Source: an uncultured Candidatus Saccharibacteria bacterium
GTDB taxonomy: Bacteria > Patescibacteriota > Doudnabacteria > UBA920
Reading direction: 5' to 3'
Length of the DNA stretch: 64,000 nt
NCBI GenBank assembly: GCA_964631145.1
Contig: CAZVXT010000001.1
Location: forward strand, 319,361 to 383,360
The notes under the pieces are model-generated. The model did not search any database and was not told the origin of the DNA. It saw only the letters and a list, made by a program, of their open reading frames with translations. Of the stretch, positions 12,102 to 55,845 are shown piece after piece (position 1 is the stretch's first letter; each line of letters begins with the position of its first letter). Both the position numbers and the translations under genes were made by a program.

Positions 12102-13373
12102 ATGAAATATCACAAGCGAATTTTAAAAAACGGATTAACTATTTTGGAAGTGCCAAGTACAGACGCCGAAAGTGTAGTGGTAGATTTTTTTGTTAAAACA
12201 GGCAGTAGAAACGAAACGCATAGAGAAAATGGCATATCTCATTTTTTGGAGCATATTCTTTTTAAAGGGACTCAAAAATTTCCTAACTCTATGGCAATCA
12301 CCGAACTTGTTGATGGTATAGGTGGCGAGATGAATGCAAACACAGGCAAGGAGCACACACAGTATTATATTAAGGCTCATCATAGTCATTTACAATTGAT
12401 CTTTGAAATTTTAACAGATATGCTTCAGGCTCCATTATTTGATGAGCCAGAAATAGATCGCGAAAAAGGAGTGATTGTAGAAGAAATAAATATGTATAAA
12501 GATTCTCCTCGCGCTCATGTGGCAAATATTTTGGAGGAGGTTATGTGGCCGCAAGATGCGCTTGGTAGAAATATTGCTGGAGAACCTGAAGGTGTAGTCA
12601 AGTTGAATAAAAAAATGTTTATTAACTATATGAACCGCTTTTATCAGCCTGGCAATATGATTTTGGGGGTAGCTGGAAAGTATGATCGTGTAGTCCTAAA
12701 TAAATTAATAAATAAATACTGGAGTAAAGTTTCTGCTGGTAGTTTCGGTAGATATTCTAAAGTTAAGGATAAGCAGAAACAATTTGCTGTTAAATTAGAG
12801 CATAAAGATATTAAGCAAGCTGTAATTAACTTTGGTTTTAAGTCGATTGATTATAATCACAAAGATAATGCAGCCGCAGCAGTTTTGGCAAGTATTTTGG
12901 GCGGTGGTATGAGTAGCCGTTTGTTTGATGAGGTTAGAGAAAAGCGCGGACTTGCTTATTATGTAAGAGCTTCTAATAGTAATTACCAAGATACTGGAGT
13001 CTTTGATATTTCTAGCGGTGTTAGGGTAGATAAAATTGAAGATGTAATTGTTGTAATATTGGCAGAATTAAAAAAGATTAGCACCGAACCAGTTACTGAC
13101 AAAGAATTGCAAAAAGCCAAGTCTTATTTAAAAGGCAAAATAACTTTGGCTCTGGAAGATAATCAATCCCGATTAGATTGGTATTTGGAAGAGTTGGCAT
13201 TTAAAAATCATGTACAAGCTCCGAAAGATGTGTTTAAAGATATTGATCAAGTGACAGCTAAAGATGTTTTGCGATTGGCAGGAAAGCTATTTAATCCTAA
13301 TCTTATGTCTTTGGCTATAGTTGGACCATATAAATCCGCTAAGAAGTTTGAATCGCTACTTAAAAAGTTTTAA
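12102..13373 (+). CDS. M16 family zinc peptidase (insulinase-like)
   Basis: Inverted zinc motif HFLEHILFKGT (HxxEH). Confidence 0.85.
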   Translation: MKYHKRILKNGLTILEVPSTDAESVVVDFFVKTGSRNETHRENGISHFLEHILFKGTQKFPNSMAITELVDGIGGEMNANTGKEHTQYYIKAHHSHLQLIFEILTDMLQAPLFDEPEIDREKGVIVEEINMYKDSPRAHVANILEEVMWPQDALGRNIAGEPEGVVKLNKKMFINYMNRFYQPGNMILGVAGKYDRVVLNKLINKYWSKVSAGSFGRYSKVKDKQKQFAVKLEHKDIKQAVINFGFKSIDYNHKDNAAAAVLASILGGGMSSRLFDEVREKRGLAYYVRASNSNYQDTGVFDISSGVRVDKIEDVIVVILAELKKISTEPVTDKELQKAKSYLKGKITLALEDNQSRLDWYLEELAFKNHVQAPKDVFKDIDQVTAKDVLRLAGKLFNPNLMSLAIVGPYKSAKKFESLLKKF

Positions 13374-35372: not shown

Positions 35373-36189
35373 CTACGCTCGCAGTATTTTTAAAAAAAGC
35401 AGCACAACCTTTTTTATATCTACATTATTTTTTCCTCGTGATAAACAAAATGATGTATTTGATTTGTATGCATTTGTAAGAATATTTGATAATTTTGTAG
35501 ATACAATTCCTCAGCAGTCAGATGATTATTATTCTTTAAAGAAGCACTATTATCAATCTTTGGCATCAGGTCATTGTGAGAATCAAATTATAAATAATTT
35601 TATAAATTTACAAAACCATTATAAGTTTGATCAACCTTGGATAGATGCATTTTTTGTTTCCATGGAAATGGATCTTAAAGATTATAAGTACCAACATTTC
35701 TCCGATACAGAAAAATATATGTTTGGATCAGCTGAAGTAGTTGGTTTAATGATGGTAAAAATTTTAGATTTATCTGAGCAATCATATTTATACGCACAGT
35801 TATTAGGAAAAGCTTTTCAGTACATGAATATGATTAGAGATATTGCAGAAGATCAAACATTTGGTAGAACTTATATTCCACTTGATATTTGCTTGCAGTA
35901 CGGTCTATCAGATTTATCATATATAACGGCACAGCACAATCAAACTGGTTTTGTAAAATTAATCAGGCAAGAAATAACTAGATATTATAGTATTGTTGAA
36001 GAAGCGGAAAAAGGGTTTAAGTTTATTCCTAATAACTATCTGGTTGCGATAAAAACTGCAGTAGACTTATTTAATATGACTATGAATAAGATTTATAAAG
36101 ATCCAATGATCGTTTATAAGACAAAAGTTAAGCCAACAAAATTGCAGGCAACTGCATATGGGATTAAAAATTATATTACGCATGCATAA
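35359..36189 (+). CDS. squalene/phytoene synthase family protein (CrtB/CrtM-like)
   Basis: Asp-rich motifs YAFVRIFDNFVD and NMIRDIAEDQTFGRTYIP. Confidence 0.8.
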   Translation: MNKNNYARSIFKKSSTTFFISTLFFPRDKQNDVFDLYAFVRIFDNFVDTIPQQSDDYYSLKKHYYQSLASGHCENQIINNFINLQNHYKFDQPWIDAFFVSMEMDLKDYKYQHFSDTEKYMFGSAEVVGLMMVKILDLSEQSYLYAQLLGKAFQYMNMIRDIAEDQTFGRTYIPLDICLQYGLSDLSYITAQHNQTGFVKLIRQEITRYYSIVEEAEKGFKFIPNNYLVAIKTAVDLFNMTMNKIYKDPMIVYKTKVKPTKLQATAYGIKNYITHA

Positions 36190-37237
36190 ATTTTTTGAAA
36201 ATAATAAACTCAAATTAGCCAAAAAAATTGATACAGTCATAACTGGAGATATGGCAAAGTGGGCTAAAATTAATCTATGGGCAAATAATTCATTGCCTTT
36301 ATTAGCAGAGTTTTCTAAACGGGGGAAATTAATAAGAGGCTTATTAGTTTTATTAGCTGCTCAAGAGGGAACAAAAACAAGTCCCGCAGCTTTGGATATT
36401 GCTTCTTGTATAGAAATTATGCATTCTAGTATTTTGGTGCATGATGATATTATGGATCGAGATCTTTTGAGAAGAGGGAGTCCAACTTTACATGCTTACT
36501 TTGCTGATAGATCTGTTAGTAAGCTTGGTAAGGAATCTCTTCATCATGGAGAAAGTTTGGCGAGTTGCATTGCAATCATTGGTTATTTTATTGCAATGGG
36601 TAGATTTTCTAAAATCAAAGATAAAGATCAAAAAGATTTATTAATCAATCTATATTCAGAAGAGATGGCTTTATTGGGTATGGCTCAGATGTCCGATGTG
36701 ACTTTAGCAGAGGATGATAAGGCTTCAGAGTCAGATGTGTTAAAAGTTTATGAGCAAAAGACTGGTAGATATACATTCGGGCTTCCGCTTTTGTCAGGGT
36801 TTATCTTGGCAGGAAAATATTCAAAAAGACTGCATAAGCAAGTGTTGGAAATGTCTATTCATCTTGGGATAATTTTTCAATTAAAAGATGATATGTTGGG
36901 TATATTTGGAGATTCTAATCAAACAGGTAAGTCTGTGGGTGGTGACATTAGAGAACGAAAAAAGACATTGCTGTATTTTGAGCTTATAAAAGCAAGTACC
37001 AACTTAGAAAAGTCTAAATTATTAAGTTTGTATAACAGTGGCAAACCTTTAAGCGAAATCAATCAAAAATTTGTTTATAGTCTTTTTAAAAAATATGATA
37101 TTGAAAAAAAAGCTGAAGCAAGATTGGACTTTGAATATCAAAAAGTAAACAAATTTTTACCTTCGCTTCCATTTTCTAAAATAGGGGAAGAAGCTTTTAA
37201 AGATCTTGTTAAATATTTATTAACTCGTAGTAAATAA
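36158..37237 (+). CDS. polyprenyl diphosphate synthase (GGPP/FPP synthase family)
   Basis: Two DDxxD motifs, ILVHDDIMDRD and FQLKDDMLGIFGD. Confidence 0.82.
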   Translation: MGLKIILRMHKFFENNKLKLAKKIDTVITGDMAKWAKINLWANNSLPLLAEFSKRGKLIRGLLVLLAAQEGTKTSPAALDIASCIEIMHSSILVHDDIMDRDLLRRGSPTLHAYFADRSVSKLGKESLHHGESLASCIAIIGYFIAMGRFSKIKDKDQKDLLINLYSEEMALLGMAQMSDVTLAEDDKASESDVLKVYEQKTGRYTFGLPLLSGFILAGKYSKRLHKQVLEMSIHLGIIFQLKDDMLGIFGDSNQTGKSVGGDIRERKKTLLYFELIKASTNLEKSKLLSLYNSGKPLSEINQKFVYSLFKKYDIEKKAEARLDFEYQKVNKFLPSLPFSKIGEEAFKDLVKYLLTRSK

Positions 37238-38073
37238 TGAATTTAAGTACATTTATAAAAATTTCCAGACCGAGATTTTGGTTATATAGTGCTGGGACTT
37301 TCTGGGTCGGGGCGATAGCAGGAGCTACTTACTTATCAGATTTATATGATTTTAGGCTGCTACTTTTTTTGGCATATTTTTTATTACCTGCAAATTTATT
37401 TATTTACGGAGTTAATGATTTGGCTGACGGAGATACTGATCAATATAATGATAAGAAAAATGTTCAAGAGCATTTACTTAAGCAAACAGAGCGTAGATTT
37501 TTGATTTTAACTGTTGTTCTATCTTTGCTATTAGGATTTGTTGTGATATATTTTTCTCCAAATTTATTAACCCAACAATTAATTTTCATATTTCTATTTT
37601 TAGCTTTTTGGTATAGTGTCCCACCATTAAGATTTAAAGCTAAGCCTATCGTAGACGCATTGAGCAATATTCATTATGCAGTAATTGGTTTTGCATCTTA
37701 TGCTTATTTTACTAATCATCTTCCCCCATGGTGGAGTATTATTGCGGCGCTTCTGTGGACTGCTGCCATGCAAATATATTCTGCAATTCCAGATATTCAA
37801 AGCGACAAACAGGCAAAATTGTATACAACAGCGATTTGGTTAGGAGAAAAATACTCCATGTATATTTGTTTAATTTTTTGGCTGACATGTAGTATCTTAT
37901 TGTATATAAATTTTTCAACTCTTTTATCTTTGTTATCTTTGTTGTATCCAGTTTATATTATTTGGCAGTTGGTAAAAAAAATTCCCATCAAACAAGTTTA
38001 CTGGTTTTATCCTTACATTAATGCCATCATGGGTTTCGTGTTATTTTGGTATTTGGTCTTCCAAAAAATATAA
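37237..38073 (+). CDS. UbiA family aromatic/isoprenoid prenyltransferase
   Basis: NDLADGDTDQ (NDxxDxxxD), nine TM helices. Confidence 0.75.
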   Translation: MNLSTFIKISRPRFWLYSAGTFWVGAIAGATYLSDLYDFRLLLFLAYFLLPANLFIYGVNDLADGDTDQYNDKKNVQEHLLKQTERRFLILTVVLSLLLGFVVIYFSPNLLTQQLIFIFLFLAFWYSVPPLRFKAKPIVDALSNIHYAVIGFASYAYFTNHLPPWWSIIAALLWTAAMQIYSAIPDIQSDKQAKLYTTAIWLGEKYSMYICLIFWLTCSILLYINFSTLLSLLSLLYPVYIIWQLVKKIPIKQVYWFYPYINAIMGFVLFWYLVFQKI

Positions 38074-43158: not shown

Positions 43159-43368
43159 TTAAGGTTTAATTAGTCCTATGGAAACTATTACAACCTTGAG
43201 TTTATTATTTTTACTTTTTATCTTGAAATCGTTAATAACTTTTTCAGATACCGCATTTATTTTTTCTGTTGTATCCAGATAATCAGTGGTTTCCATAATA
43301 ACTCCTTGCAAATCAAACTGCATTTTAAAAAAAGAATAAGCCAAGACTGTAAATAAGTAGATTTTCAT
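43159..43368 (-). CDS. hypothetical small protein with a hydrophobic N-terminus
   Basis: 69 aa. GGAGGG lies upstream. It overlaps the upstream gene by ATGA. Confidence 0.5.
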   Translation of the reverse strand: MKIYLFTVLAYSFFKMQFDLQGVIMETTDYLDTTEKINAVSEKVINDFKIKSKNNKLKVVIVSIGLIKP

Positions 43369-43607
43369 TTTTTCCCTCCAGTATTTTTCTTAAACTCTGT
43401 ATAGCCCCAAGCAATTAATCCTAATAATATAGCTAGCCCTAATCCTCTTTTGGAAAAGATAAAACTATAAAACCAAGCATCAATTGCATCGCCAACCGTA
43501 TGGGTGGACGTTGTTTCCATTATTTGTTGTAGCCCGCTGTAAAGCAGAACATAAAACACTAGAACCATAAGAAGTCCTACAAACAGATTGAATATAAAAT
43601 TATTCAT
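43365..43607 (-). CDS. hypothetical two-TM small membrane protein
   Basis: 80 aa. GGAGGAAA lies upstream. It is antisense within the rpsG-fusA spacer. Confidence 0.55.
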   Translation of the reverse strand: MNNFIFNLFVGLLMVLVFYVLLYSGLQQIMETTSTHTVGDAIDAWFYSFIFSKRGLGLAILLGLIAWGYTEFKKNTGGKK

Positions 43608-43679
43608 AAATTTCCTCCAAGTTTTAAATTTATCATATTATATCATAAAAAATTAAAAAGTCAAGTATAATTAAATTAT

Positions 43680-45803
43680 ATGCCACGAGAATATCCAATA
43701 GACGTAACCCGTAATATCGGGATTATTGCTCACATTGATGCCGGCAAAACTACAACTACCGAAGGTATTTTGTACAACACTGGTATGATTCACAAAATTG
43801 GTGCAGTGCACGAAGGTGAAACTGTTACCGACTGGATGGAACAAGAACGCGAACGCGGAATTACAATTACTTCTGCTGCTGTAACTTGTTACTGGAAGCC
43901 TCAATATATAAAAATTGAAGGCGATAAACAGTATAAAATTAATATTATTGATACCCCTGGTCACGTAGACTTTACTGTAGAAGTAGAACGTAGTTTGCGC
44001 GTCCTTGATGGTGCAATCACAGTTTTTGACGGAAAAATGGGTGTAGAGCCTCAGTCCGAAACAGTGTGGCGTCAAGCTGATAAATACGGTGTGCCTCGCA
44101 TGTGTTTTATCAACAAGATTAACCAAACAGGTGGAGATTTTTATAAGTCTCTAGATTCTATTCATACTCGTTTAACTAAAAATGCATTTCCTGTACAGCT
44201 TCCAATTGGTTTTGAAAAAGATGTTATTGGCGTAGTAGATTTGGTTACAATGAAGTCTTACACTTATAACGACTTTACAGATAAAGAATTTACAATCGGT
44301 GATGTGCCTGCAGATATGGTTGAGAAAGCAAATAAGTATCGCCAAGAATTGATCGAAAAAGTTGTTGAGTTTGACGAAGCTATGATGGAAAAATATTTAG
44401 GTGGTGAAGCGTTAAGCGAAACAGAATTGTTAGAACTTATTCGTAAAGCTACCCGTAGCGGTGAATTTTATCCAGTATTTGGTGGTGATGGTCGCGGTAT
44501 TATTGTTCGTACTTTACTTGATGCAGTTACTAACTTTTTACCTTCTCCAACAGATAAAGGACCTGTTAAAGGACATAATCCAAAAACAGGTGAAGAATTA
44601 CTTCGCAATCCTGATGATAACGAGCCGTTTACTGCTCTTGCATTCAAGATCGCGACCGATCCTTTTGTAGGTCGTCTTGCTTTTTTCCGTGTTTACTCTG
44701 GAACTCTTCAAGCAGGAAGCTATGTACTTAATGCTAGAACAGGTAACAAAGAACGCGTGGGACGTATTGTACGTATGCGTGCAGATCAACGCGACGAAGT
44801 AAAAGAAGTTTTTGCTGGTGATATTTGTGCGTTAGTTGGTCCAAAAGACACCATTACTGCTGATACTCTTTGTTCAGAAACTTCACCATTAGAATTAGAA
44901 AAAATTAAATTCGCAGAACCAGTTATTAGTATGGCTATCGAGCCAAAGACTAAAGCTGATCAAGAAAAACTTGGTATTGCTCTTCAAAAACTTGCTGAAG
45001 AAGATCCAACCTTTAAGGTTACTTCAGATCATGAAACTGGCGAAACTATTATAGCTGGTATGGGTGAACTTCACTTAGAAATTTTGGTAGACCGCATGAA
45101 GCGCGAATTTAAAGTAGAAGCAAACGTAGGTAAGCCACAAGTTGCTTACAAAGAAACCTTTAAGAAAATTGCTAAAGCAGAACACAAGTTTATCCGCCAA
45201 TCTGGTGGTCGTGGACAATACGGTCACGTTTATCTTCGTGTTGAACCTCTTGAGCAAGGAAAGGGTTATGAATTCTTGGATGAAATTGTTGGTGGTGTTA
45301 TTCCAAAAGAATATATTAAACCAATTGATAAAGGTATTCAGGAATCAGCTGCAAATGGTGTAATCGCTGGTTACCCGCTTGTAGACTTTAGAGCTGCTGT
45401 GTATGATGGTAGTTATCACGAAGTTGACTCTTCTGAAATGGCTTTCAAAATTGCTGCATCTAAAGCTTTGCAGGATGCTGTAAAAGCAGGTGATCCAATC
45501 TTGCTAGAGCCTGTGATGAAAGTTGTTGTTACTACACCTGAAGCAAACATGGGTGATGTAATTGGTGATTTAAACAGTAAGCGCGCTAAAGTCCAAGATA
45601 TGGAAGATATTACTGGACGTAAAGTAGTTACTGCTTTTGTACCACTTGCAGAAATGTTTGGTTACGCAACACAATTGCGTAGCATGACCCAAGGTCAGGC
45701 AAGTAGTATTATGGAATTTGATCATTATGAAGAAGTTCCAAAAAATGTTGCTGCTGGTATCATTGAAGCACGTGCTGGTATTAACGCCCGCAAAGGACAA
45801 TAG
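43680..45803 (+). CDS. fusA: elongation factor G
   Basis: G domain [17 protein letters not shown] and NKIN, plus the EF-G domains II-V. Confidence 0.95.
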
Positions 45804-45812
45804 AAATTTAGA

Positions 45813-45841
45813 AAACCACTCCGTAATAGGGTGGTTTTTTT
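45813..45841 (+). terminator. intrinsic terminator after fusA
   Basis: Stem ACCACTCC...GGGTGGT followed by T7. Confidence 0.6.
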
Positions 45842-45913
45842 ACTTGAATGAAGAGATTGACATTTTGTTGAATTAAATTATAATACACAAGCTAAATAGC
45901 AAAGGGGGATTTT

Positions 45914-46609
45914 ATGGAAATATATTCTAAAGGGTTAGAAATTGAACAATGCGTTGTTTATTTAGAGTCTAAAAAAATTAGAGTTAATCCTGAATTAAAA
46001 GAAGATGCCAGTTTTATTAAAAATAGTTTAACTCGAAAAGTAGTTATAAATATAATTATTGGGTTGCTTATTACTGGGATCGCAGGATATTGGAATCAAT
46101 ATTCAATACCTTATTTTTTAGTTGTGTGGTTAACGCAAGTCATTTTTACATCAATTATTTTTCAACCGATTGTCGAAAAAAAACTTAAAAAATATAGGAT
46201 AGTTGAAATGTATGAAGTTTTATCCTTACCGCTCATGAATGCTATTTTAGAGCATAATAAAAGGTTGAATAATTTGATTGATTCTATAAACTTAAGTTTA
46301 ACTTTTGATCAAACTCAAGATATGTCTGCTACTAAACAATTAATTAATCAAATCAATCAAGGTAGAGAAGTTATAGATAAAAATTTTGATAAACTATCTA
46401 GAATTAACGAAAGATATTCTTCTATTAGAAATTTAGATAAAAATACTATCGTCGATACTATGTTTGAGCTACCATTGTTAGTGGTTAATAATGAGGTTTA
46501 TTCTCATGAAGATAACGAGCTTAATTTATTAGTGGAAACTATTAATCAAGAAGTTGATCTTGTAGTAAAAAATGAAATATCTGCTCCTAAGCAGTTAAAA
46601 AGTCTTTAG
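45914..46609 (+). CDS. hypothetical membrane protein (two TM segments plus a coiled-coil region)
   Basis: GGGGGA lies upstream. Confidence 0.55.
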   Translation: MEIYSKGLEIEQCVVYLESKKIRVNPELKEDASFIKNSLTRKVVINIIIGLLITGIAGYWNQYSIPYFLVVWLTQVIFTSIIFQPIVEKKLKKYRIVEMYEVLSLPLMNAILEHNKRLNNLIDSINLSLTFDQTQDMSATKQLINQINQGREVIDKNFDKLSRINERYSSIRNLDKNTIVDTMFELPLLVVNNEVYSHEDNELNLLVETINQEVDLVVKNEISAPKQLKSL

Positions 46610-46717
46610 AAATAAAAAATGGACTAACAGAAATGTTGGTCTTTTATTATACTAGACAAACTTCTTATTTTTATATATAATGTTTTATCAGTTTAGCTGA
46701 TAAAAAGGAGGACTTTT

Positions 46718-47266
46718 ATGTCAAAAGATACCGAGTTAGAAGATGTAAAAAAAGAATGGGACGCGGCTGGTTTCTTGATAAAAACAGTAGTAGTCTTAGT
46801 AGTCTTAGTAGTTTTAGTTGTTTTATCTCTAGTAGGATTATTATTATTTCGCATAACTTGTGTTACCTTCGTGGAAAACTATGAGCTTGGCTATATGTAT
46901 GATTCTACTAATGGTGAAACCAGGTTACTAAACCGCACCGGTTATATAACGCATTATCCATTGGTTAACTCAGTTCATACAATTGACTTGCGTCCGATGC
47001 AAGTATGTATGAATGCAAATGCCAGAGTTTTAAATTGTAAATTAGTTCGATTTAATCCTGCCGGCTTTGAAGATTTTATTGCTCGTCATGGTAGAAATAA
47101 TTATGATGGCGGCAATTGTTCTACCGGAGGTAGTTCATCTAGTGGAAGCTGCGGTAATTTAAATGAAATACTAAGAAGTTATGCTTTTGAGGCAAATCCT
47201 CAATATTCGTTTTTTACTTTTGAAAACCCTAGTGGTGCTGATGTAAAAGCAAATGGTGGAAAATGA
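46718..47266 (+). CDS. hypothetical membrane-anchored protein, paralog 1
   Basis: AAGGAGG lies upstream. It has an N-terminal TM anchor and shares a Cys-containing domain of about 110 aa with the next gene. Confidence 0.6.
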   Translation: MSKDTELEDVKKEWDAAGFLIKTVVVLVVLVVLVVLSLVGLLLFRITCVTFVENYELGYMYDSTNGETRLLNRTGYITHYPLVNSVHTIDLRPMQVCMNANARVLNCKLVRFNPAGFEDFIARHGRNNYDGGNCSTGGSSSSGSCGNLNEILRSYAFEANPQYSFFTFENPSGADVKANGGK

Positions 47267-47712
47267 AAAGAAATAAAATATTAAAATATGTCGCATATAC
47301 TTTTTTAGTGATTTTAATTTTAACATTTGCTTATAAGCTTTTCTTTCACCATCAAGATGTTTACGAAGTAGGTTTGGCAAGAAATTTATTTACCGGCGAA
47401 ACATACTTACTTGATAAGCCAGGTTTTTACAGAAACTATCCTTGGGTCTGGGTTGCAATTGCAGAAACTAGACCAACTAGGGTTTGTGTTACAAGCACTG
47501 CAAGGTCTTATAATTGCAAGTTGGCACAATTTAAACCTGAACATTATCAAGAATTTTTGGAAACTGAAGGGTGGAGGTTTTATTGGCTATCTAATAGAAT
47601 TTCAATTAACTTTGGATATGATGATGAATATAGAGGTTTCAAAGATATTCTAAGAGGATATGCTTTTGGTAATAAAAAGTATAATTTTATAGAGGTGTCT
47701 GACTCTCCATAA
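47263..47712 (+). CDS. hypothetical membrane-anchored protein, paralog 2
   Basis: Alignable with 46718..47266 over YE.G...GET.LL...YP.V...P..VC....R..NCKL..F.P...F...ILR.YAF. It overlaps that gene's stop. Confidence 0.6.
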   Translation: MKRNKILKYVAYTFLVILILTFAYKLFFHHQDVYEVGLARNLFTGETYLLDKPGFYRNYPWVWVAIAETRPTRVCVTSTARSYNCKLAQFKPEHYQEFLETEGWRFYWLSNRISINFGYDDEYRGFKDILRGYAFGNKKYNFIEVSDSP

Positions 47713-47745
47713 AAAATAGCGTGCTAATAATTAGCACGCTTTTAT
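47711..47745. terminator. bidirectional terminator
   Basis: 11-bp palindrome AGCGTGCTAAT-A-ATTAGCACGCT. Confidence 0.6.
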
Positions 47746-48225
47746 TTAATAATTTTTTTGTGGGGGGAGAACTATATCTCCGATTTTTATTATCCCACTT
47801 GTTAATACGTGGGCGGTTAAGCCTCCACAGTCAAAAAATTCTTCAGCAAAATTTACTGGTTTGTTTGATAGCTTACTTGGTCTGGTGCAAGGTTCGCAGT
47901 ATTTGTATCCAAAAAATTTAACATCACCGATAGTAAATTCTTTGTTAATACAACGCATTAATTCTATTCCTTCTATCAATAAATTTCTTCTTGTTTCGTA
48001 AAACCAGAAAGTTTTATTTTTAAAGAAGTGTGCGTTCATTAAGGTTACTTGCCCGTTCCAGGTGCCTGTTTTTTTAGCATTAAGCTTGTTAAAACTACCA
48101 ATCCCTGCTGCATAGCGATCCCCTTGAAGTCCTTTACCTTCCATGCAATAAACTTCCAGTAATGCTTGCATTGGCGCTCCTGCTTTAGGAGCGATGCAAA
48201 TTTGCTTTAACGTTCCTTTAATCAT
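47746..48225 (-). CDS. MOSC domain-containing protein
   Basis: GDRYAAG, QVTLMN, NLLIEGIEL and the Cys-containing C-terminal block (CEPCTRP). Confidence 0.6.
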   Translation of the reverse strand: MIKGTLKQICIAPKAGAPMQALLEVYCMEGKGLQGDRYAAGIGSFNKLNAKKTGTWNGQVTLMNAHFFKNKTFWFYETRRNLLIEGIELMRCINKEFTIGDVKFFGYKYCEPCTRPSKLSNKPVNFAEEFFDCGGLTAHVLTSGIIKIGDIVLPPQKNY

Positions 48226-48553
48226 TATGATCCTCCAAAGTATTGTTATCAGCTTCGGGTTTTTCTAAGACAATAAAGCAGTGTGGGCAATTTTGGATTT
48301 CGTAAACTTTTTTATTGCTTGTTCGAATAGTGATAAATAACCATTTGCTTTTGTAATATATGACCTCTCCAGCAAAAAGTTGCTTATCCGATTCTCCATA
48401 CCAAATGCTAATATTATCATGACTTCTTGCTTTAAAAACTGTGCATTCATGAGTTATAAAATTATTTTCAGAATCTTTTATAATATCCGACGCATCTATA
48501 TCATCTAGCAATTTCATACGAACGTTTTGCATATTTCTATTCTCCTTTTTCAA
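48218..48553 (-). CDS. hypothetical protein
   Basis: 111-aa ORF. Confidence 0.5.
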   Translation of the reverse strand: MKKENRNMQNVRMKLLDDIDASDIIKDSENNFITHECTVFKARSHDNISIWYGESDKQLFAGEVIYYKSKWLFITIRTSNKKVYEIQNCPHCFIVLEKPEADNNTLEDHND

Positions 48554-48562
48554 GATTTATAT

Positions 48563-48919
48563 TTAAACTCGTTGTGTTTCTTTGGATAATACTTTAGTTT
48601 TTACTTTTGTATAAATCCACACATCAGCTTCAAAATCCATTTCATATACTCTATAGCTGTTTTTATCGCTTTGTAATTTCCATTTTGAATTTTCAAAATT
48701 ATGTTTCTTCCACCAGGGTAAACAATTTTCACCATTAACAATTTTATTTAATTGTTTTCTGGCAAAATATTTTGTTGGATATGGACCATGTGTTTTGGAT
48801 GCTATCGGTTTTTTTGTCTCAGCGCCTTTGCATGGTTCATCTAATAAGACATCTACATATTCTTCACGAACGTAATATTCGGTAGTAACTAGAGCTACTG
48901 TGGTAACAATTTTCTGCAT
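48563..48919 (-). CDS. hypothetical protein
   Basis: 118-aa ORF. GGAGG lies upstream. Confidence 0.5.
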   Translation of the reverse strand: MQKIVTTVALVTTEYYVREEYVDVLLDEPCKGAETKKPIASKTHGPYPTKYFARKQLNKIVNGENCLPWWKKHNFENSKWKLQSDKNSYRVYEMDFEADVWIYTKVKTKVLSKETQRV

Positions 48920-49043
48920 AAAACCTCCTTTTTGAATAACTTAATTTATCATCTTTAGCAGCATTAGTCAACGCGGTGTTTACCATGTTTTAAAAAATAT
49001 TTATTATTTAAATAATAAAAAACCAGCTAAATGCTGGTATATT

Positions 49044-49379
49044 TTAGTATAAACTAGAGTTTGGAGAGAAAGGCAGAAAATTAGATTTACCATCCATAAC
49101 ATAAGTAGTTTTAACAATCTCTTTTATATTAATAGATGTTTTAATAATTACGGTATCACCGTCTTGGCTTTGTGATAACATGGTTCCGTTTTTAATTCCG
49201 ATAGTAACAGTAACAGTGTTGTCTGTTCTAGAGACTTCATCTATTTTATAGCAATCAATAGGTTTGTCTTGATCTTTTAAATATATTTTACAAACGATTT
49301 CATGGTTACCTTGCTTGTTGGTTTTGTTTATATCTACAGTTGGTGTATTTGTTTGAATTTCTTCTAGTATATTTAACAT
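49044..49379 (-). CDS. hypothetical protein
   Basis: Start at MLNILEE (complement of 49377-49379) after GGAGGATAAT. Confidence 0.5.
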   Translation of the reverse strand: MLNILEEIQTNTPTVDINKTNKQGNHEIVCKIYLKDQDKPIDCYKIDEVSRTDNTVTVTIGIKNGTMLSQSQDGDTVIIKTSINIKEIVKTTYVMDGKSNFLPFSPNSSLY

Positions 49380-49461
49380 ATTATCCTCCTTTAGAAGATA
49401 TAAATTATCATGTATTTGGGTGTTTGTCAAGTGTGACTTTTTTATATTAATTGGTTAATAT

Positions 49462-50070
49462 GTGGTTATGAGCTTACAAGAATTATTAGATTTAACCAAA
49501 AAATTTGGACAAACAGTAGTGGTTTCTGAAAGCGGGGATGTTAAAGCGATTTTGTTATCCCCAGAAAAATACATAGATTTTGCTAAAGATAAAAAGGTAG
49601 AACGAGCTCCTTTAAATAATAATCAAAGTGCTAATTATGATTCCGCATTGGGACAAAAGCAAGGCATGCCTGTTCCTACAGATTTAGAACCCGAAGAGGA
49701 TGTTATTGCAGAACATGAACAACAAGATTTGCCAGTTGGTTTAGATTTTGATATTTCTGATAATGATTTTAATAAAGGTTTGTTTAAGAGTGTTGGTCTA
49801 AATAATGATGAAAATCTCGAAACTTTTAATGTTAATGATTCTAGTGAAATTGAAGAAAATATAGTAGACAGAGCCTCTTCCGCAGAACCGCCAAAACCAT
49901 TAAGTAGTTTATTAACTAAAAGAGCTGAAAGTTTATTTATGGACAAACCTTTTGGCAGGGTAAATACTCCGGAGTTTGATATGCGCAGCGAAGTAGTAGA
50001 TCCAAATTTTGGTAAGCCAGCTAATGTAGATGATGATGAAGAAATCCAAACCAGCTTTGAGAATATTTAA
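49462..50070 (+). CDS. protein with a Phd/YefM-like N-terminal domain and a long acidic disordered tail
   Basis: LQELLDLTKKFGQTVVVSESGDVKAILLSPEKY resembles the YefM antitoxin fold. It is followed by a D/E-rich tail of about 150 aa. Confidence 0.45.
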   Translation: MVMSLQELLDLTKKFGQTVVVSESGDVKAILLSPEKYIDFAKDKKVERAPLNNNQSANYDSALGQKQGMPVPTDLEPEEDVIAEHEQQDLPVGLDFDISDNDFNKGLFKSVGLNNDENLETFNVNDSSEIEENIVDRASSAEPPKPLSSLLTKRAESLFMDKPFGRVNTPEFDMRSEVVDPNFGKPANVDDDEEIQTSFENI

Positions 50071-50148
50071 TATATGATTATAAAAAGATTCTAGACATCC
50101 TAGGATCTTTTGGTTATAATGATCTATAAAATTACTTTAGGAGGTAGT

Positions 50149-50589
50149 ATGGAAAAAATCAAAGAAGTAATTAATTCTGTTTCTAATTTTTTTGAAAAAG
50201 GGGATAGTTACCCAGAAATGTTCTTGGCACTTAAAGAGTTTTTGGGTTTAGACGTTATTCATCTCAACATACTTGCAGAGACAGCTTCATATTTACTGTT
50301 GCAAGATTTTTTTGGAGAAAAATGCGTGCTGTTTACTTATAACAGGCTTTCTAATGCTCCAGAAAAATATCAAATGTTTTGTTTTGATGCTAGTGGTAGG
50401 CTACGGCAATTTTTTAGTCAAAATAATAAAAAAATTTTTAGCAAAAATGATTTTATAGGATGGCTAGGTGTTGAAATGCTTTCTGCGGCACAAGATTTTG
50501 TAAAAGGGGTTATAAAAAACTCCCAGCTACTAGACTCTAATGCAGAATTTGCTTTAGAAATTATTGATAATGTTTCTGATAGTTATTAA
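50149..50589 (+). CDS. hypothetical protein
   Basis: ATG at 50149 after AGGAGG. The track ORF begins at an upstream ATG at 50110. Confidence 0.5.
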   Translation: MEKIKEVINSVSNFFEKGDSYPEMFLALKEFLGLDVIHLNILAETASYLLLQDFFGEKCVLFTYNRLSNAPEKYQMFCFDASGRLRQFFSQNNKKIFSKNDFIGWLGVEMLSAAQDFVKGVIKNSQLLDSNAEFALEIIDNVSDSY

Positions 50590-50595
50590 ACAAAA

Positions 50596-50624
50596 AGCAC
50601 TAGAAATTTCTAGTGCTGTTTTTA
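50596..50624 (+). terminator. intrinsic terminator
   Basis: Palindrome AGCACTAGAAATTTCTAGTGCT followed by T5. Confidence 0.6.
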
Positions 50625-50641
50625 TTAAAAACTTAATTTAT

Positions 50642-51145
50642 CTAAATTGTTGCGCCCATCTTTTGGAGCTTGCTTTCTAAAACCAAAATTTCTAGTGCTG
50701 TTTTGGATGGTGTCTTATCTTTTAAATTTTCTTTGCTTCTTTTATATTTTAGCTGCTTTGTGTATTTTGCAATTACATTTATGAAATCATCTATCCATAA
50801 TTTTGAATCCACTAGGTATTTAAAATTTATATCTTCGTCTTTTATATAGAATAAGCCGTTCCAGTTTACTTCAAGAATATCGGTAAGTTTTGTATCTGAT
50901 CCTAAACGAGTTGATATGGTTAATGTGCAATTACCAAACATGCTTTGTCCTTCATCAAAATTAAAATTAAACCCGGCTATTGCAGCTTCGGTTTTTTTGT
51001 GAATATGGCACGAGTGTATTTGGTTATATGTTTGCACACCGAGCTTTTCTTTTAATAAAAAAGCAAAATTCATAATTTGCTCATTTTGCTTGGTTTGCAA
51101 TTTTAGTGTTCTTTTTAAGTTTGAAATATGGGTATTATCTTTCAT
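50642..51145 (-). CDS. hypothetical protein
   Basis: 167 aa. GGAGG lies upstream. Confidence 0.5.
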   Translation of the reverse strand: MKDNTHISNLKRTLKLQTKQNEQIMNFAFLLKEKLGVQTYNQIHSCHIHKKTEAAIAGFNFNFDEGQSMFGNCTLTISTRLGSDTKLTDILEVNWNGLFYIKDEDINFKYLVDSKLWIDDFINVIAKYTKQLKYKRSKENLKDKTPSKTALEILVLESKLQKMGATI

Positions 51146-51195
51146 AATTTACCTCCATAAAATTTTCCTTAGTATATGTTGAGGACAAGGAAAAG

Positions 51196-51495
51196 TCAAA
51201 CAAAAAAACAGTTGGCAGAAACCAACTGTTGTTTGGGAATGAATTGAATGTGTTTATTTGCTAAGTCAAAAATTTGCTGTTTTAAACTGTAGCAAAGATA
51301 GATTACTTTTGGAGTATTAATTGGCTTGTATGAATGTATATTATCTTTAAAAATTGCTGTAGCGATAACGTAATCAGTTACAAACTGCAAAGCATCGCTA
51401 TAATTTTTATGAAAGCTTAAATATTTTACTCCTTGATGATCAATCCAAGTTTGGGCATAAACTGCAACTTTGAATATATTCACATCGTTCTTCAT
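51196..51495 (-). CDS. hypothetical protein
   Basis: Start at MKNDVN (complement of 51493-51495) after AGGAGG. The track ORF extends further upstream. Confidence 0.5.
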   Translation of the reverse strand: MKNDVNIFKVAVYAQTWIDHQGVKYLSFHKNYSDALQFVTDYVIATAIFKDNIHSYKPINTPKVIYLCYSLKQQIFDLANKHIQFIPKQQLVSANCFFV

Positions 51496-51610
51496 AACAT
51501 TACCTCCTTTTTGGCAAGTTACTTCGAGTATACTCTTTTTATAAAAATTTGCAAATAAATTTGTTATAAAATAAAAGGCGGAAGATATATTCTTCCGCAT
51601 TGGTTTAACG

Positions 51611-51982
51611 TTATTTGGAAATTTTTGTGATTGTTAGGTGATCTAGAATATCGCCATCATTGCAATTTGATTGCTCTGTATAAAGCAATGTAATTTTGTC
51701 ATTAACAACCAATCCAAATGTTTCTATTTTTTTTGCATTGCATGGAGCTGGTGAAGTGATTATTGTTCTATTTCCGAAATTATCTTCGAGTATGGTTCTA
51801 ACAATCCATCCCCATTGATTAGTCTGTATATGCTTGACTGTATATACTTTTTGATCAAGTTCTAAAGCTTCTATCTTATGGTCATTATTTGAGCAATTAT
51901 AGTAGCAGGAACACATTATTCCGAAAAATATAATGCCAATAATTATTAGGCTAATTACCGTTTTTGTAATTTTTTCTTTCAT
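51611..51982 (-). CDS. hypothetical lipoprotein-like protein
   Basis: N-terminal hydrophobic segment followed by Cys residues. AGGAGG lies upstream. Confidence 0.5.
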   Translation of the reverse strand: MKEKITKTVISLIIIGIIFFGIMCSCYYNCSNNDHKIEALELDQKVYTVKHIQTNQWGWIVRTILEDNFGNRTIITSPAPCNAKKIETFGLVVNDKITLLYTEQSNCNDGDILDHLTITKISK

Positions 51983-52293
51983 ATTTCCTCCTAAATAAAA
52001 TGATTTTATATCATAAAATATTTTGGACTGGGTGTCAACTTTTCTTGACCTGGCTTTAAAAAAGCTTTAAAATAAGTTGTGATTGGCTCGAAGTTTTCGT
52101 GCCAGTTTTATAAATCATTAATTAGTGGTTGTATTTAGCAAAATTCTCCCTGGATTCCTAAAGCTTCCTATGTTTATAGAGAAGGCGTAGATAAAAAGAG
52201 AAACCCTCCCTCCTTTTCCGTATCGATAGGGAAAGAAGTGAGGGTATCTCGGGATTAGACTAATAAATACAACACCGAAAGGTATTTGCACAA

Positions 52294-53481
52294 ATGGCAG
52301 AAGCATTTGATCGCTCAAAGCCTCACCTTAACGTTGGTACGATTGGCCACGTTGACCACGGTAAGACCACTTTAACTGCGGCTATTACCAATGTACTTGC
52401 TAAGTCTGGTAAAGCAAAAGCAAGAGCTTACGACCAGATCGATAACGCTCCGGAAGAAAAAGCTCGTGGTATTACTATTAATACTTCTCACCAGGAATAC
52501 GAAAGTGACAAGCGTCACTACGCTCACGTAGACTGTCCTGGTCACGCTGACTATATCAAAAACATGATCACTGGTGCAGCTCAAATGGATGGTGCTATCT
52601 TGGTTGTATCTGCAACTGATGGTCCTATGCCACAAACTCGTGAACACATTTTGCTTTCTAAGCAAGTAGGTGTACCTTACATTGTTGTTTATATGAACAA
52701 GTGTGATATGGTACAAGATCCAGAACTTTTGGATTTAGTAGAAGAAGAAATTCGTGATCTTCTTACTAAGTACGAATTCCCTGGAAAAGACACTCCAATC
52801 ATCCGCGGTTCTGCCCTAAAAGCATTAGAAGGTGATACTTCTGAAATGGGTGAACCATCAATCTTAAAGCTTGTTGAAGCTTTGGATAACTTCATCCCAG
52901 AACCAGCTCGCGAAACTGATAAACCATTCTTAATGCCAATTGAAGATATCTTCACTATTGAAGGTCGTGGTACTGTAGTAACTGGTCGTATCGAACGCGG
53001 TGAAATCAAGATTAACGATGAAATTGAAATCGTTGGTATCAAAGCAACTACAAAAACTGTAGTAACTGGTATCGAAATGTTCAACAAACAACTTGATAAA
53101 GGTATGGCTGGTGACAACGCTGGATTATTGCTTCGTGGTGTAAAGAAAGAAGAAGTAGAACGCGGTCAAGTTTTGGCTAAACCAGGTTCTATTACTCCTC
53201 ACACCGAATTTGAAGCTGAAGTTTATATCTTAACCAAAGAAGAAGGCGGACGTCACACTCCATTCTTCAAGGGTTATAAGCCTCAATTCTACGTTCGTAC
53301 AACTGACGTAACCGGTGAAGTTATCTTGCCTGAAGGTCAAGAAATGGTTATGCCTGGTGATACTGTAACTATCAACGTTAAGTTGATTACCCCAATTGCC
53401 TTGGAAGAAAAAGGTAAATTCGCTATCCGCGAAGGTGGTCGTACAGTAGGTGCTGGTGTTGTAACAAAAATTGTTAAATAA
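52294..53481 (+). CDS. tuf: elongation factor Tu
   Basis: [23 protein letters not shown] and NKCD. Full length is 395 aa. Confidence 0.97.
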
Positions 53482-53574: not shown

Positions 53575-53595
53575 TGCTTGTTAAATGGAGGTTTT

Positions 53596-54114
53596 ATGAA
53601 TAAAGGTCAAAGTATTTCGTCTGAGCTACTGCGAAAATCTGCCGCAGATCAAAATTTAAATAATGAAAACACTGTAAAGTTAAAGCCGAACCCTAATGCT
53701 AATTTTATTTCAGAATTTGTTAGTTATAAGGTTGGCACCGCAGAAAGGTATCAACAAGATCAAATATTATATGATTGCAAATATGGTTCGATAAAGTATA
53801 AAAATGCGAGTTTAAAATTAGCTGCTGCACGAGAAAAATCTTTACAAGCAGAAATAAACATGCGGTTCTTAGTATCAAATCAAAAACCAGATTTGTTAAT
53901 TGATTTTTTGGACTTAATTAAAAGTCTAGAAGAGTGTATTGCTTTTAAAAATCGCGGGCTTGTAAAACTATCAAAATTTAAAGAAGGGAGTGCAAGTTGG
54001 AAGCTTCAATATAAAGAAAACGAAGAATACGACTTATTAGCAGTCAATAAAGAAGCAGAAATTATGCGGTTATTAGGGTATATTTCTAAAGATGAAGATA
54101 AAATTGATTTATAA
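53596..54114 (+). CDS. hypothetical protein
   Basis: ATG at 53596 after GGAGG. Confidence 0.5.
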   Translation: MNKGQSISSELLRKSAADQNLNNENTVKLKPNPNANFISEFVSYKVGTAERYQQDQILYDCKYGSIKYKNASLKLAAAREKSLQAEINMRFLVSNQKPDLLIDFLDLIKSLEECIAFKNRGLVKLSKFKEGSASWKLQYKENEEYDLLAVNKEAEIMRLLGYISKDEDKIDL

Positions 54115-54160
54115 TATAAAAACCTCAGATAGAATAGATCTGAGGTTTATTTATTTTTTA
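54115..54160. terminator. bidirectional terminator
   Basis: Stem AACCTCAGAT/ATCTGAGGTT with an A-run and a T-run. Confidence 0.6.
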
Positions 54161-54167
54161 TGCTTGT

Positions 54168-54617
54168 TTAATAAATTAATCGAACATTAACGTTTATGGA
54201 TAGGGAAGACTGTTTATTATTTATGGTTTTAAAATCAACAATTGATTCTTTGTATTGTTTGGATAAATTATTCTGTATAGAAAAACTAAATTTTCTACCA
54301 GAAGAATTTTTTAAGTTCATATCAAAACCGACTAATAAATTACTAGAATTATTATAGAAGTTGTTATTGAAGTAGTTTTGATTGGCGCCAAAGTTGTTCC
54401 AATAAGAGTTGCCTGTGTAAGAATTATTAGTAATACCAAAATTGCTATATATACTTGGATCATTATACATAATATTCTTCTTCTTTTGAATTGTGGCTTG
54501 GATAGTAATTTTATATTTAGATTCTGTAGATTCGTTGATATTTGAAAAACTTTCTTGCCCATAATGCGCTAAGGACAAAAAGCATAAACTAATAATATAG
54601 AAAACAATTTTATACAT
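54168..54617 (-). CDS. secreted Asn/Tyr-rich hypothetical protein
   Basis: Signal peptide. GGAGG lies upstream. Confidence 0.5.
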   Translation of the reverse strand: MYKIVFYIISLCFLSLAHYGQESFSNINESTESKYKITIQATIQKKKNIMYNDPSIYSNFGITNNSYTGNSYWNNFGANQNYFNNNFYNNSSNLLVGFDMNLKNSSGRKFSFSIQNNLSKQYKESIVDFKTINNKQSSLSINVNVRLIY

Positions 54618-54751
54618 ACTGCCTCCAAAGTGTTTTTATTTTAGTATAAATGTGTGAGGTTAAAGATATTTACAAATTTTTATCAAGTCCATTATAGATT
54701 GACTAATACTAAATTTTAAACTATTGTAAGCCTAAAAATAGGAGGCAAATT

Positions 54752-55009
54752 ATGCTGATTTTATGGTTAAAGAATAAATGGTTGCATTCTAAATTATACA
54801 TTTGGCTTTTACATGTTAAATGTATGGTGTTGCATTTTTATCTCCATGATGTAAATTATCATTACAGACCAGTTGGTAAGTATGTAATCTTGGCTCATAC
54901 TAAATATAAGATAATTTATTGTAAAAAGTGCCATCATTTTTACACAAGAGAGAGATTGGTTTATGATCACTTTGATCCAATGGATTATTATTATTATGAT
55001 AGGTTCTAA
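54752..55009 (+). CDS. hypothetical small Trp/Tyr/His-rich protein
   Basis: AGGAGG lies 7 nt upstream. 85 aa with CKKCHH and a YYYYDRF C-terminus. Confidence 0.45.
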   Translation: MLILWLKNKWLHSKLYIWLLHVKCMVLHFYLHDVNYHYRPVGKYVILAHTKYKIIYCKKCHHFYTRERLVYDHFDPMDYYYYDRF

Positions 55010-55116
55010 ATTAAATAAGTCCTGATTTATTCAGGCTTTTTATTTATCTATGCTTGGTTTGACAAAATACATAAATTTAAACATAATACTATGAAAATCT
55101 AATTTAGGAGGAAATT

Positions 55117-55845
55117 ATGATAACTGAACACTTAAAGGATTATAATAGTCAAGAAAAATTTTTACGAACTCAGATTTTTTATGCAGAAAATTTACGGGAA
55201 AAATCTCAAGATTATAGCAATGCTATCACTTCTTTAAAAGAAGTCATTGATCAATCGGTAGAATTTCCAAAAATAATGTTAGATGCTTATGCCCAATTAA
55301 TTTTGACTTGGCGACACAAGTATGAGCGTCAAGGTAAAAATATTGAGGATTTAAACAAAATGGGGTTCTGCATTGATGATGCTTTGTATTTTATAGATTT
55401 ACCTGATCAGCAAAAGCACGTGTTATTTTACCGGTTGGGAGATTGGCATTTTCTAAGAAATAACTATGAAAATTCTCTGAATAATTATCAAAAGGCATTT
55501 ACTTTTGCTATTAAAGAGCAAATGTTGTTTAGCTCTTCATCCATTGCCACTGTTGGGGAGTATGAAAAAAGCATCGCCAAAGCCCATTATATGCTTAAGC
55601 AATATCAATCAGCGTTTGAAAATATTGTAAACTCAATAGATGATATTAAAGCTGGACACTTTGAGAAATCAGAAAAATGGCGGCAAAATATCATGCTTTC
55701 ATCTAGTTATGGCGTGCTTGCAAAAATTCAATTTTTCAGATGGAGACCAAGCTGTATATACTATGCTGGTAAAGCATTTTTAATGTCTGTTTTCCTGGCA
55801 AAAAATGGTTATGGTTTGCGTCTAAAACAAGCTTTAAAAACCTAA
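55117..55845 (+). CDS. hypothetical protein, possibly a helical-repeat (TPR-like) protein
   Basis: AGGAGG lies upstream. 242 aa. Confidence 0.5.
   Translation: MITEHLKDYNSQEKFLRTQIFYAENLREKSQDYSNAITSLKEVIDQSVEFPKIMLDAYAQLILTWRHKYERQGKNIEDLNKMGFCIDDALYFIDLPDQQKHVLFYRLGDWHFLRNNYENSLNNYQKAFTFAIKEQMLFSSSSIATVGEYEKSIAKAHYMLKQYQSAFENIVNSIDDIKAGHFEKSEKWRQNIMLSSSYGVLAKIQFFRWRPSCIYYAGKAFLMSVFLAKNGYGLRLKQALKT

Follow-up and report, generated by a model that had tools for sequence, protein, structure and literature searches.

The 6.49 kb that separate fusA from tuf in the Patescibacteria chromosome segment analyzed here are likely to be a native, long-standing hotspot of gene flux, organized around the conserved gene i08 and, in this clade, the gene i01, and not one acquired element. 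The segment, referred to below as the window, is a 64,000-nucleotide, low-GC (33.7%) stretch of DNA from an uncultured Candidatus Saccharibacteria bacterium (Patescibacteriota; Doudnabacteria). Its gene order is rpsL (41982), rpsG (42587), fusA (43680-45803), tuf (52294-53481), rpsJ (56082), and rplC, and the interval under study occupies positions 45,804 to 52,293. The order rpsL-rpsG-fusA-tuf is among the most conserved in bacteria and serves as a fixed landmark in annotation and phylogenomics. An earlier reading of the same letters (the original prediction) proposed that a lineage-specific accessory island had been lodged in this block as a single insertion. Its view of the content was largely right, since the genes vary among relatives and several of the products are membrane proteins; the single inserted island is not supported, for the reasons set out below.

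The arrangement is real and is not an assembly artefact, because two independent Logan assemblies contain identical DNA and two ENA assemblies contain DNA of 94% identity, from sister strains; a chimera is excluded by these four independent assemblies. The best EF-G matches, obtained from a search of 185,579 species genomes, were all metagenome-assembled genomes (MAGs) labelled Patescibacteria or "Saccharibacteria," and the full str and S10 clusters of the window are syntenic with Patescibacteria MAGs, which rules out the possibility that the window belongs to a huge phage. Between fusA and tuf there are 12 credible open reading frames (ORFs), designated i01 to i12, which occupy 84% of the 6.49 kb. 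The 13 counted originally are thereby reduced by one, the other ORFs of at least 60 amino acids (aa) being antisense or overlapping, such as 49635-49946 within i08. In other respects the original description is borne out, save for the firmness of some of its labels. Spurious ORFs are ruled out by homologs and by dN/dS values. Relative to the sister strains, dN/dS is 0.07 to 0.09 for i02, i03 (0.09), i04, and i10 (0.08 for each of the last two), and these four are therefore real genes under purifying selection, contrary to the caveat in the original prediction that the ORFs might prove unconserved.

The two genes that carry the argument are as follows.

49468 to 50070, plus strand: i08, 200 aa (protein P0001), Phd/YefM-like in its N-terminal domain and conserved in its C-terminal module, with an acidic, disordered linker between the two.
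45914 to 46609, plus strand: i01, 231 aa, with hydrophobic segments at approximately aa 42 to 59 and 65 to 87, then a long helical, coiled-coil-like tail.

Positional evidence indicates that, across Patescibacteria, i08 belongs to the ancestral content of the fusA-tuf gap. Homologs were recognized, by eye and then with a hidden Markov model (HMM), in L002 and L003, two relatives in which the gene immediately precedes tuf. In a Doudnabacteria MAG, another homolog (P0003), which aligns with 99% of the query at 32% identity, occupies the fusA-tuf gap by itself; P0002 and a gene of L096 are further homologs. A profile search yielded a family of 308 proteins of approximately 110 to 140 aa, almost all of them unnamed, the named members being from Patescibacteria. 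When an HMM of 123 family members was run against all ORFs of two sets of loci (approximately 1.4 Mb and 1.0 Mb), it matched solely plus-strand ORFs of the fusA-tuf gap, in 11/11 and 6/6 placeable loci (17/17), with no match outside this gap in either set; seven more matches begin directly 3' of fusA on contigs that end before tuf. An arbitrarily picked distant member, P0186, lies in the order rpsL-rpsG-fusA-P0186-tuf-rpsJ. Most genomes have no gene other than the i08-family member between fusA and tuf. Comparison of all island ORFs with 81 genome loci and 80 metagenome loci by tblastn and phmmer gave no match at an E value of ≤1e-3 except for i08. A metagenome scan with the alignment of the close i08 family found no relatives, and a literature search found no published description of an i08-family gene.

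The closest genome found, CP064996.1 (L096), encodes EF-G and EF-Tu proteins that are 91% and 92% identical to those of the window. For the window EF-Tu itself, a look-up of the exact protein returned no record. Its 4.7-kb gap contains, between fusA and tuf, an i01 homolog, a nucleotidyltransferase-like gene, an i08 homolog, and five small minus-strand ORFs. Only i01 and i08 are common to the two gaps; the remaining CP064996.1 ORFs resemble no window ORF. Because homologs of these two genes are present and the other ORFs are unrelated, it appears that a scaffold of fusA, i01, variable genes, i08, variable minus-strand genes, and tuf has been kept and that the cargo has been fully replaced. The anchors themselves have diverged to 33 to 40% identity between the window and CP064996.1. 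Our exhaustive homology search, which was carried out against 1.84 billion protein representatives, covered the island ORFs other than i07 and i11, with i03 reached only via its paralog i02. For i01 it returned one remote cluster, P0097 (33% identity; E value, 2.5e-14), which is the first gene 3' of fusA in CP064996.1 and in the Logan contig L097; i01 has no Pfam, PADLOC, or PHROG match. We therefore regard i01 as a putative second anchor, position conserved in this clade. The local GC content, at 33.7% in the window versus 43.5% in CP064996.1, represents a large compositional shift despite the 91% amino acid identity of EF-G.

Long gaps at this position are not peculiar to the window. In non-Patescibacteria loci (Bacillota, Acidobacteriota, Nitrospirota, and Elusimicrobiota), fusA and tuf are 36 to 181 bp apart; in the Patescibacteria loci of the first set, which was retrieved by EF-G, the gap is 96 to 6647 bp. 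In another set of loci, 42 from metagenomes and independent of the first, the gaps were 60 to 7624 bp, with a median of approximately 550 bp, and five measured at least 4.7 kb. The 6.5-kb gap of the window is in the upper tail of the Patescibacteria range, and others are similar. The gap content was different in each relative examined, the neighbors of i08 differ from relative to relative, and the gene 3' of the i08-family member, which is tuf in most relatives, is an unrelated ORF here. The synteny comparison that the original prediction had called for thus showed variable content, including the absence of i06 from the sister strains, and not one gene set shared by all relatives. In a metagenome scan with fusA, the nearest match was 73%, and no genomes of intermediate distance were recovered.

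The interval also has the composition of its surroundings. Of 115 segments of this length, 20 lie farther from the whole window in tetranucleotide composition than the interval does, and GC at third codon positions (GC3) is 0.19 to 0.30 in the island ORFs versus 0.23 to 0.29 in fusA and tuf, so that the suggested k-mer and GC comparison with the flanks shows nothing out of the ordinary for the window. No long, att-like flanking repeats were found around the interval and there is no tRNA gene near it, the sole tRNA gene of the window being at 27873. As stated originally, no integrase or transposase was evident: searches against Pfam, NCBIfam, and PHROG gave no integrase, recombinase, or transposase match for any of the 12 ORFs. 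A single insertion is not supported by this combination of native composition, lack of flanking repeats, tRNA, and recombinase, an ancestral i08, and a position-conserved i01.

Direct evidence for gain or loss by the cassette comes from i06, which is missing, with exact junctions, from the sister contigs L093 and L094 (94% nucleotide identity). In the sister strains, a promoter and a Shine-Dalgarno (SD) sequence (AAAAAGGAGG) run straight into the start codon of i05; the window strain has the i06 ORF between this SD sequence and a second copy (AAAAAGGAGA) upstream of i05. The junctions fall in the AAAAAGGAG SD repeats, and i06 is a one-gene indel bounded by a ribosome-binding-site repeat.

The signals for expression that were read in and around the interval are listed here.

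approximately 45813 to 45845, plus strand: terminator-like hairpin of fusA, AAAACCAC ... GTGGTTTT, followed by a T-run (read from the sequence).
45857 to 45884, plus strand: i01 promoter, consensus TTGACA-16-TATAAT, 12/12 positions (motif scan).
46621 to 46642, plus strand: terminator-like hairpin 3' of i01.
47718 to 47740, both strands: bidirectional terminator with a 10-bp stem and a T-run on either strand, separating the convergent i03 and i04.
48943 to 48971, minus strand: promoter-like site of the i06-i05-i04 unit, TTGACT-17-TAAATT with TG, weaker (9/12), kept in the sister strains.
50092 to 50120, plus strand: i09 promoter.
50596 to 50617, both strands: bidirectional terminator between the convergent i09 and i10.
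52038 to 52010, minus strand: i12 promoter, TTGACA-17-TATGAT.
52045 to 52293, plus strand: tuf promoter, TTGACC-17-TAAAAT, and a leader of approximately 220 nucleotides (nt) with a hairpin (alignment with four relatives).

The terminator after fusA and the bidirectional terminators that had been predicted are indeed present; the consensus hairpin scan missed the fusA terminator-like hairpin because of its 11-nt loop. In the region from 41.5 to 56.5 kb, 32 terminator-like hairpins were found where 7.2 were expected, an approximately four-fold enrichment, and they are placed between units. Near-consensus sigma-70 promoters precede i01, i02, i09, and i12. GGAGG-type sites lie upstream of 9 to 10 of the 12 ORFs. 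The tuf promoter and leader are conserved with CP064996.1, the Doudnabacteria MAG, L002, and L003. Within the leader, a hairpin at approximately 52215 to 52268 has an invariant ATCGATAG loop and eight pairs with compensatory changes (RNAalifold); a search of Rfam at an E value of ≤1 gave no match for the island or the tuf leader. The 250 bp 5' of tuf lie outside the variable region, of which they form the real right-hand boundary, and the leader is a candidate cis-regulatory element of this clade that belongs to no Rfam family.

The TATAAT box of fusA ends approximately 8 nt 5' of the ATG, with no SD sequence (43655-43682), and i08 likewise has no SD sequence (49440-49470); the cargo genes have strong GGAGG sites. 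The fusA and i08 mRNAs may be leaderless. A perfect 19-nt direct repeat, AAATTTCTAGTGCTGTTTT, was observed at 50604-50622 and 50686-50704; it is one arm of the i09/i10 bidirectional terminator, copied within the 3' end of i10.

Such a hotspot would probably work as follows. In Patescibacteria, fusA and tuf appear to be separate transcription units, the former ending in a terminator and the latter having its own promoter and structured leader, and this separation would make a hotspot possible. A small gene for a Phd/YefM-like acidic protein of the i08 family normally lies between them. Self-contained cassettes, each with its own promoter, SD sequence, and terminator, could then build up on either side of i08 without polar effects, because read-through from fusA into tuf would not be necessary, and they would be gained or lost singly by illegitimate recombination at short repeats, for example the SD sequence itself. 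Here, the slot holds the residents i01 and i08, the mini-SPFH pair i02-i03, a MOSC protein, and, along with one possible restriction enzyme remnant, ORFans with a fast turnover, of which some are membrane or secreted proteins. This reading is based on the observed order and homologies of the genes, their conserved positions, purifying selection, the indel of i06, and a native composition; separate transcription, the recombination mechanism, and SPFH-like hetero-oligomerization are the parts that we infer.

The two genes that follow i01 form a tandem pair.

46718 to 47266, plus strand: i02, 182 aa, N-terminal membrane helix and a mini-SPFH-like domain, first gene of the pair.
47263 to 47712, plus strand: i03, 149 aa, second gene of the pair, paralogous to i02, which it overlaps by 4 bp (ATGA).

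The tandem paralogs of the original prediction are confirmed by 31 to 34% identity (E values, 1e-16 to 1e-18), and because of the ATGA overlap the two genes are probably translationally coupled. When the island ORFs were compared with phage genomes by tblastn, this pair alone matched: it occurs in the same order and with the identical overlap in LR756504.1 (636 kb), which has been handled as a megaphage (PMC9723777). An IMG/VR scan found the pair in six more contigs of 162 to 482 kb, giving seven huge-phage loci of 162 to 636 kb; in these phage loci, the 8 kb on either side of the pair contain no other island ORF. The pair is also found in L101 and, in a cellular context, in Candidatus Uhrbacteria GW2011_GWD2_52_7, and the tandem order is kept in all loci examined. 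Representative clusters of the family number at least 150.

In the confident AlphaFold model of i02 (pLDDT, 88; pTM, 0.75), an alpha/beta domain comes after a long membrane helix, and the long hydrophobic helix that forms the N-terminal anchor of both proteins is evident in sequence and model alike. The best structural matches, HflK/HflC, prohibitin 1/2, erlin 1/2, and flotillin 1/2, point to an SPFH fold, and in BFVD the i02 model best matches Band 7/SPFH proteins encoded by phages and giant viruses. Neither protein matches Pfam Band_7 at an E value of ≤0.1, and the family profile matches no PDB sequence. Like the HflK/HflC, prohibitin, erlin, and flotillin pairs, i02 and i03 are adjacent paralogous genes whose products have an N-terminal membrane anchor and then an SPFH-like alpha/beta domain. 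Unlike them, they are short (149 to 182 aa, versus approximately 270 to 420 aa), have no Band_7 match, lack the coiled-coil cage region (in the model, the i02 protein ends approximately 130 aa past the membrane helix, with short helices only), and are distributed among Patescibacteria and huge phages. The pair is probably a minimal SPFH-type hetero-oligomeric membrane module or scaffold, with a predicted fold and a presumed function.

Three parts make up the proteins of the i08 family: a short N-terminal domain that is ordered, a disordered acidic linker, and a tail that combines acidic and aromatic residues. In the AlphaFold2 model of i08, aa 3 to 41 form a helix-strand-strand-helix unit (pLDDT, 73 to 78) and aa 145 to 158 form a helix. 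Close relatives of i08 have a C-terminal module in common, LLxKRAExLFxDKPFGR...DxRSEVVDPxFG...DDEEIxPxFDDI, and i08 itself terminates in DDEEIxxxFxxI. The description of this gene product as YefM-like is in keeping with the family, 16/71 members of which match the Phd/YefM model PF02604 at an E value of ≤0.01 (best, 1.2e-6); for the window protein itself the match is weak, 14.6 bits against a cutoff of 29.8 (E value, 0.028), which is below the threshold. A Foldseek search of the PDB with the i08 model gave no significant match, the Phd-Doc structure 3k33_D being at rank 34 with an E value of 3.9. The resemblance to Phd/YefM type II antitoxins lies in a short N-terminal domain, predicted as helix-strand-strand-helix and with weak-to-moderate PF02604 matches in the family, and an unstructured C-terminal region that bears a conserved motif of the binding type. 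Unlike these antitoxins, i08 has no adjacent toxin gene (searches of the island ORFs revealed neither Doc/Fic nor YoeB nor any other toxin domain), its position is fixed between fusA and tuf, its acidic linker is long, its C-terminal tail of acidic and aromatic residues is conserved, and the window protein gave neither a Pfam match above threshold nor a significant Foldseek match.

Doc-type kinases, which are neutralized by Phd, target EF-Tu (PMC9207808), and because this Phd-Doc-EF-Tu axis is known, i08 might act on EF-Tu, EF-G, or tuf. One possibility is autoregulation, in which the Phd/YefM-like dimerization or DNA-binding domain would act at the tuf promoter or leader; another possibility is direct binding to EF-Tu or EF-G, by which i08 could serve, for instance, as decoy or antidote to Doc-type kinases. 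Any such role in tuf regulation or factor binding is one that we infer. A bolder proposal joins i08 to the mini-SPFH pair: i08 would be a phylum-specific member of the str cluster that acts on translation elongation, and the gap would be a phylum-wide site at which Patescibacteria and huge phages exchange envelope modules such as the mini-SPFH pair. With or without the exchange site, we consider such an action of i08 doubtful.

The remaining genes of the interval are listed below.

47746 to 48225, minus strand: i04, 159 aa, MOSC-domain protein (PF03473, 26.7 bits versus a cutoff of 22.7).
48218 to 48532, minus strand: i05, 104 aa, fast evolving; the true start is ATG 48532 and not TTG 48553 (start and SD in the sister alignment).
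48563 to 48919, minus strand: i06, 118 aa, strain-specific ORFan; self-match only among the 1.84 billion representatives.
49044 to 49379, minus strand: i07, 111 aa (128 aa from an upstream TTG), weak partial restriction endonuclease match.
50149 to 50589, plus strand: i09, 146 aa, AGGAGG site and own promoter.
50642 to 51145, minus strand: i10, 167 aa, under purifying selection.
51196 to 51495, minus strand: i11, 99 aa, putative ORFan, Logan contig gene call with an AGGAGG site; a 134-aa reading enters the i12 terminator.
51611 to 51982, minus strand: i12, 123 aa, Cys-rich ORFan, N-terminal membrane/signal segment; self-match only.

The MOSC-domain assignment made originally is upheld for i04. 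Its score is above the gathering threshold of PF03473, as in the YiiM/MOSC family; unlike those proteins, i04 stands alone at 159 aa, matches only the C-terminal two-thirds of the domain, and has no partner gene nearby. The lipoprotein-like protein of the original prediction is i12, which has a hydrophobic N-terminal segment and cysteines but, by reading, no canonical lipobox. In the sister strains, the i05 ortholog (P0009) is 76% identical, and the neighboring genes have very few amino acid changes. The dN/dS ratio is approximately 0.23 for i05, approximately 0.38 for i07 (69 codons), and approximately 0.16 for i11 in a partial alignment to the sister strain with indels. The i07 protein matches PADLOC REase_II (E value, 4.5e-4) and Pfam RE_NgoBV (E value, 0.029) at profile positions of approximately 65 to 160 of 240 only, with no methyltransferase partner in the region, and may be a decayed restriction endonuclease fragment. 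The idea that i06 and i07 together are one frameshifted restriction enzyme was rejected, since i06 has no restriction endonuclease match. The sole homolog of i09 is remote (P0135; 34% identity; E value, 2e-7) and is found in a different context, a few kilobases from two integrase genes in another Patescibacteria MAG. For i10, the sister-strain ortholog P0005 (95% identity) was found and no more distant homolog. Singleton status, with no match but to the ORF itself among the 1.84 billion representatives, was demonstrated for i06 and i12 alone, and island ORFs other than i01 to i04 and i08 appear to be ORFans or nearly so.

The nearest parallels to a gene-flux hotspot at this site are chromosomal integration hotspots and plasticity regions, which likewise have fixed conserved flanks, content that varies among close relatives, presence or absence of single genes between strains (here i06), and a mixture of ORFans and horizontally shared modules. 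Unlike those regions, the fusA-tuf slot is inside the str cluster, has two position-conserved resident genes, lacks a recombinase, a tRNA gene, and a compositional signature, and is apparently phylum-wide in Patescibacteria. A degraded mobile element or prophage remnant whose integrase has since been lost might be proposed instead, given that the i02-i03 pair is common to seven huge-phage contigs, that i07 weakly resembles a type II restriction enzyme fragment, and that the only i09 homolog has two integrase genes for neighbors. Such a remnant would, however, have left no integrase, transposase, tRNA gene, flanking direct repeats, or deviation from the composition of the window; in the phage loci, the pair travels with no other island ORF and it is also found in an ordinary cellular context in Uhrbacteria; i01 and i08, inside the block, are ancestral residents; and tblastn of the island ORFs against plasmids was empty, the phage matches being those of the pair alone. 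We consider this origin very unlikely. An anti-phage defense or toxin-antitoxin island, with i08 as the antitoxin and the neighboring ORFans as toxins or effectors, is highly improbable: the Phd/YefM matches of the i08 family, the weak REase_II match of i07, and fast-evolving, variable content of the kind seen in defense islands would be in keeping with it, but the i08-family gene is alone between fusA and tuf in most genomes, with no candidate toxin adjoining, and has different neighbors in every relative. The unrecognized defense module that had been suggested found no support, PADLOC having detected no significant component in any ORF, the sole match being that of i07 (none for the other 11), which is partial and has no methyltransferase to accompany it.

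The third alternative is that the interval is a cell envelope or host interaction locus of an episymbiotic Patescibacteria cell and that this function explains the rapid turnover. There are N-terminal membrane segments in i01, i02, i03, and i12; other Patescibacteria gaps encode prepilin-like proteins (L023 and L040) or a 1251-aa protein with a hydrophobic start (L051); and the anchors diverge very fast, i01 being 33% identical where EF-G is 91% identical. The clearly membrane-located products are, however, only 4 of 12, and a cytoplasmic location seems to suit i04, i08, and several ORFans; searches of the island revealed no domain typical of adhesins, pili, or secretion. As an explanation of the whole interval it is unlikely, and it is largely compatible with a hotspot rather than an alternative to it. 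Several points do weigh against the native hotspot that we prefer. In the window, i08 is apart from tuf, unlike in most relatives, which makes a tuf-linked role uncertain, and the positional conservation of i01 is known from one other lineage. The transcription units were deduced from consensus motifs alone, and the SD-repeat junction of i06 fits a deletion in the sister strains as well as it fits an insertion here. Finally, i06 and i12 are the only demonstrated singletons, the deep search having covered the island ORFs other than i07 and i11, and i03 indirectly.

Hypervariable slots between core genes are already known. What is new about the fusA-tuf hotspot is its position in the str cluster, its phylum-wide character, its Phd/YefM-like resident, and a mini-SPFH pair common to huge phages. 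It seems that, across an ultrasmall phylum, the str cluster is routinely interrupted, has a conserved small protein of its own, and tolerates kilobases of fast-turnover cargo. Approximately half of the genes of these ultrasmall bacteria are of unknown function, and the fusA-tuf gap would be a defined place in which to find lineage-specific genes. It also provides two testable families, an elongation-factor-linked, Phd/YefM-like acidic protein and a minimal paired SPFH module; if proteins of the i08 family did act on EF-Tu, EF-G, or the expression of tuf, they would represent a new Patescibacteria-specific factor associated with translation.

Other gaps of the str cluster, rpsG-fusA and tuf-rpsJ, are interrupted too. 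In the window, the rpsG-fusA gap (43159-43607, minus strand) contains two tiny membrane ORFs of 69 and 80 aa with a faint match to type IV secretion system (T4SS) pilin, and small minus-strand membrane ORFs are present between rpsG and fusA in L002 and L003. The tuf-rpsJ gap (53578-55845) has three ORFs, one with TPR repeats. In the Doudnabacteria relative L084 (GCA_041389225.1), the tuf-rpsJ gap (12241-13161) has a Zeta-toxin/AAA_33 gene and a 71-aa ORF; this neighboring gap may likewise gather accessory, toxin-antitoxin-like cargo. Within the fusA-tuf gaps of L023 (12204-13343) and L040 (2726-5519), one or two proteins of approximately 380 to 470 aa with prepilin-type N termini (FTL[IV]ELL) are encoded upstream of the i08-family gene, as surface cargo of this slot. 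In several Patescibacteria loci (L005, L006, L007, L016, L017, L021, and others), the EF-G match is approximately 2.9 to 3.1 kb long versus 2.1 kb; an intein was ruled out, fusA being of normal length and the tblastn match extending into the GTPase domain of the nearby tuf. Upstream in the window, at 33894 to 38073, there is a carotenoid/isoprenoid-like cluster that comprises an amine oxidase/phytoene desaturase-like gene and genes for a squalene/phytoene synthase, a polyprenyl synthetase, and a UbiA prenyltransferase, which is unusual for a reduced Patescibacteria genome.

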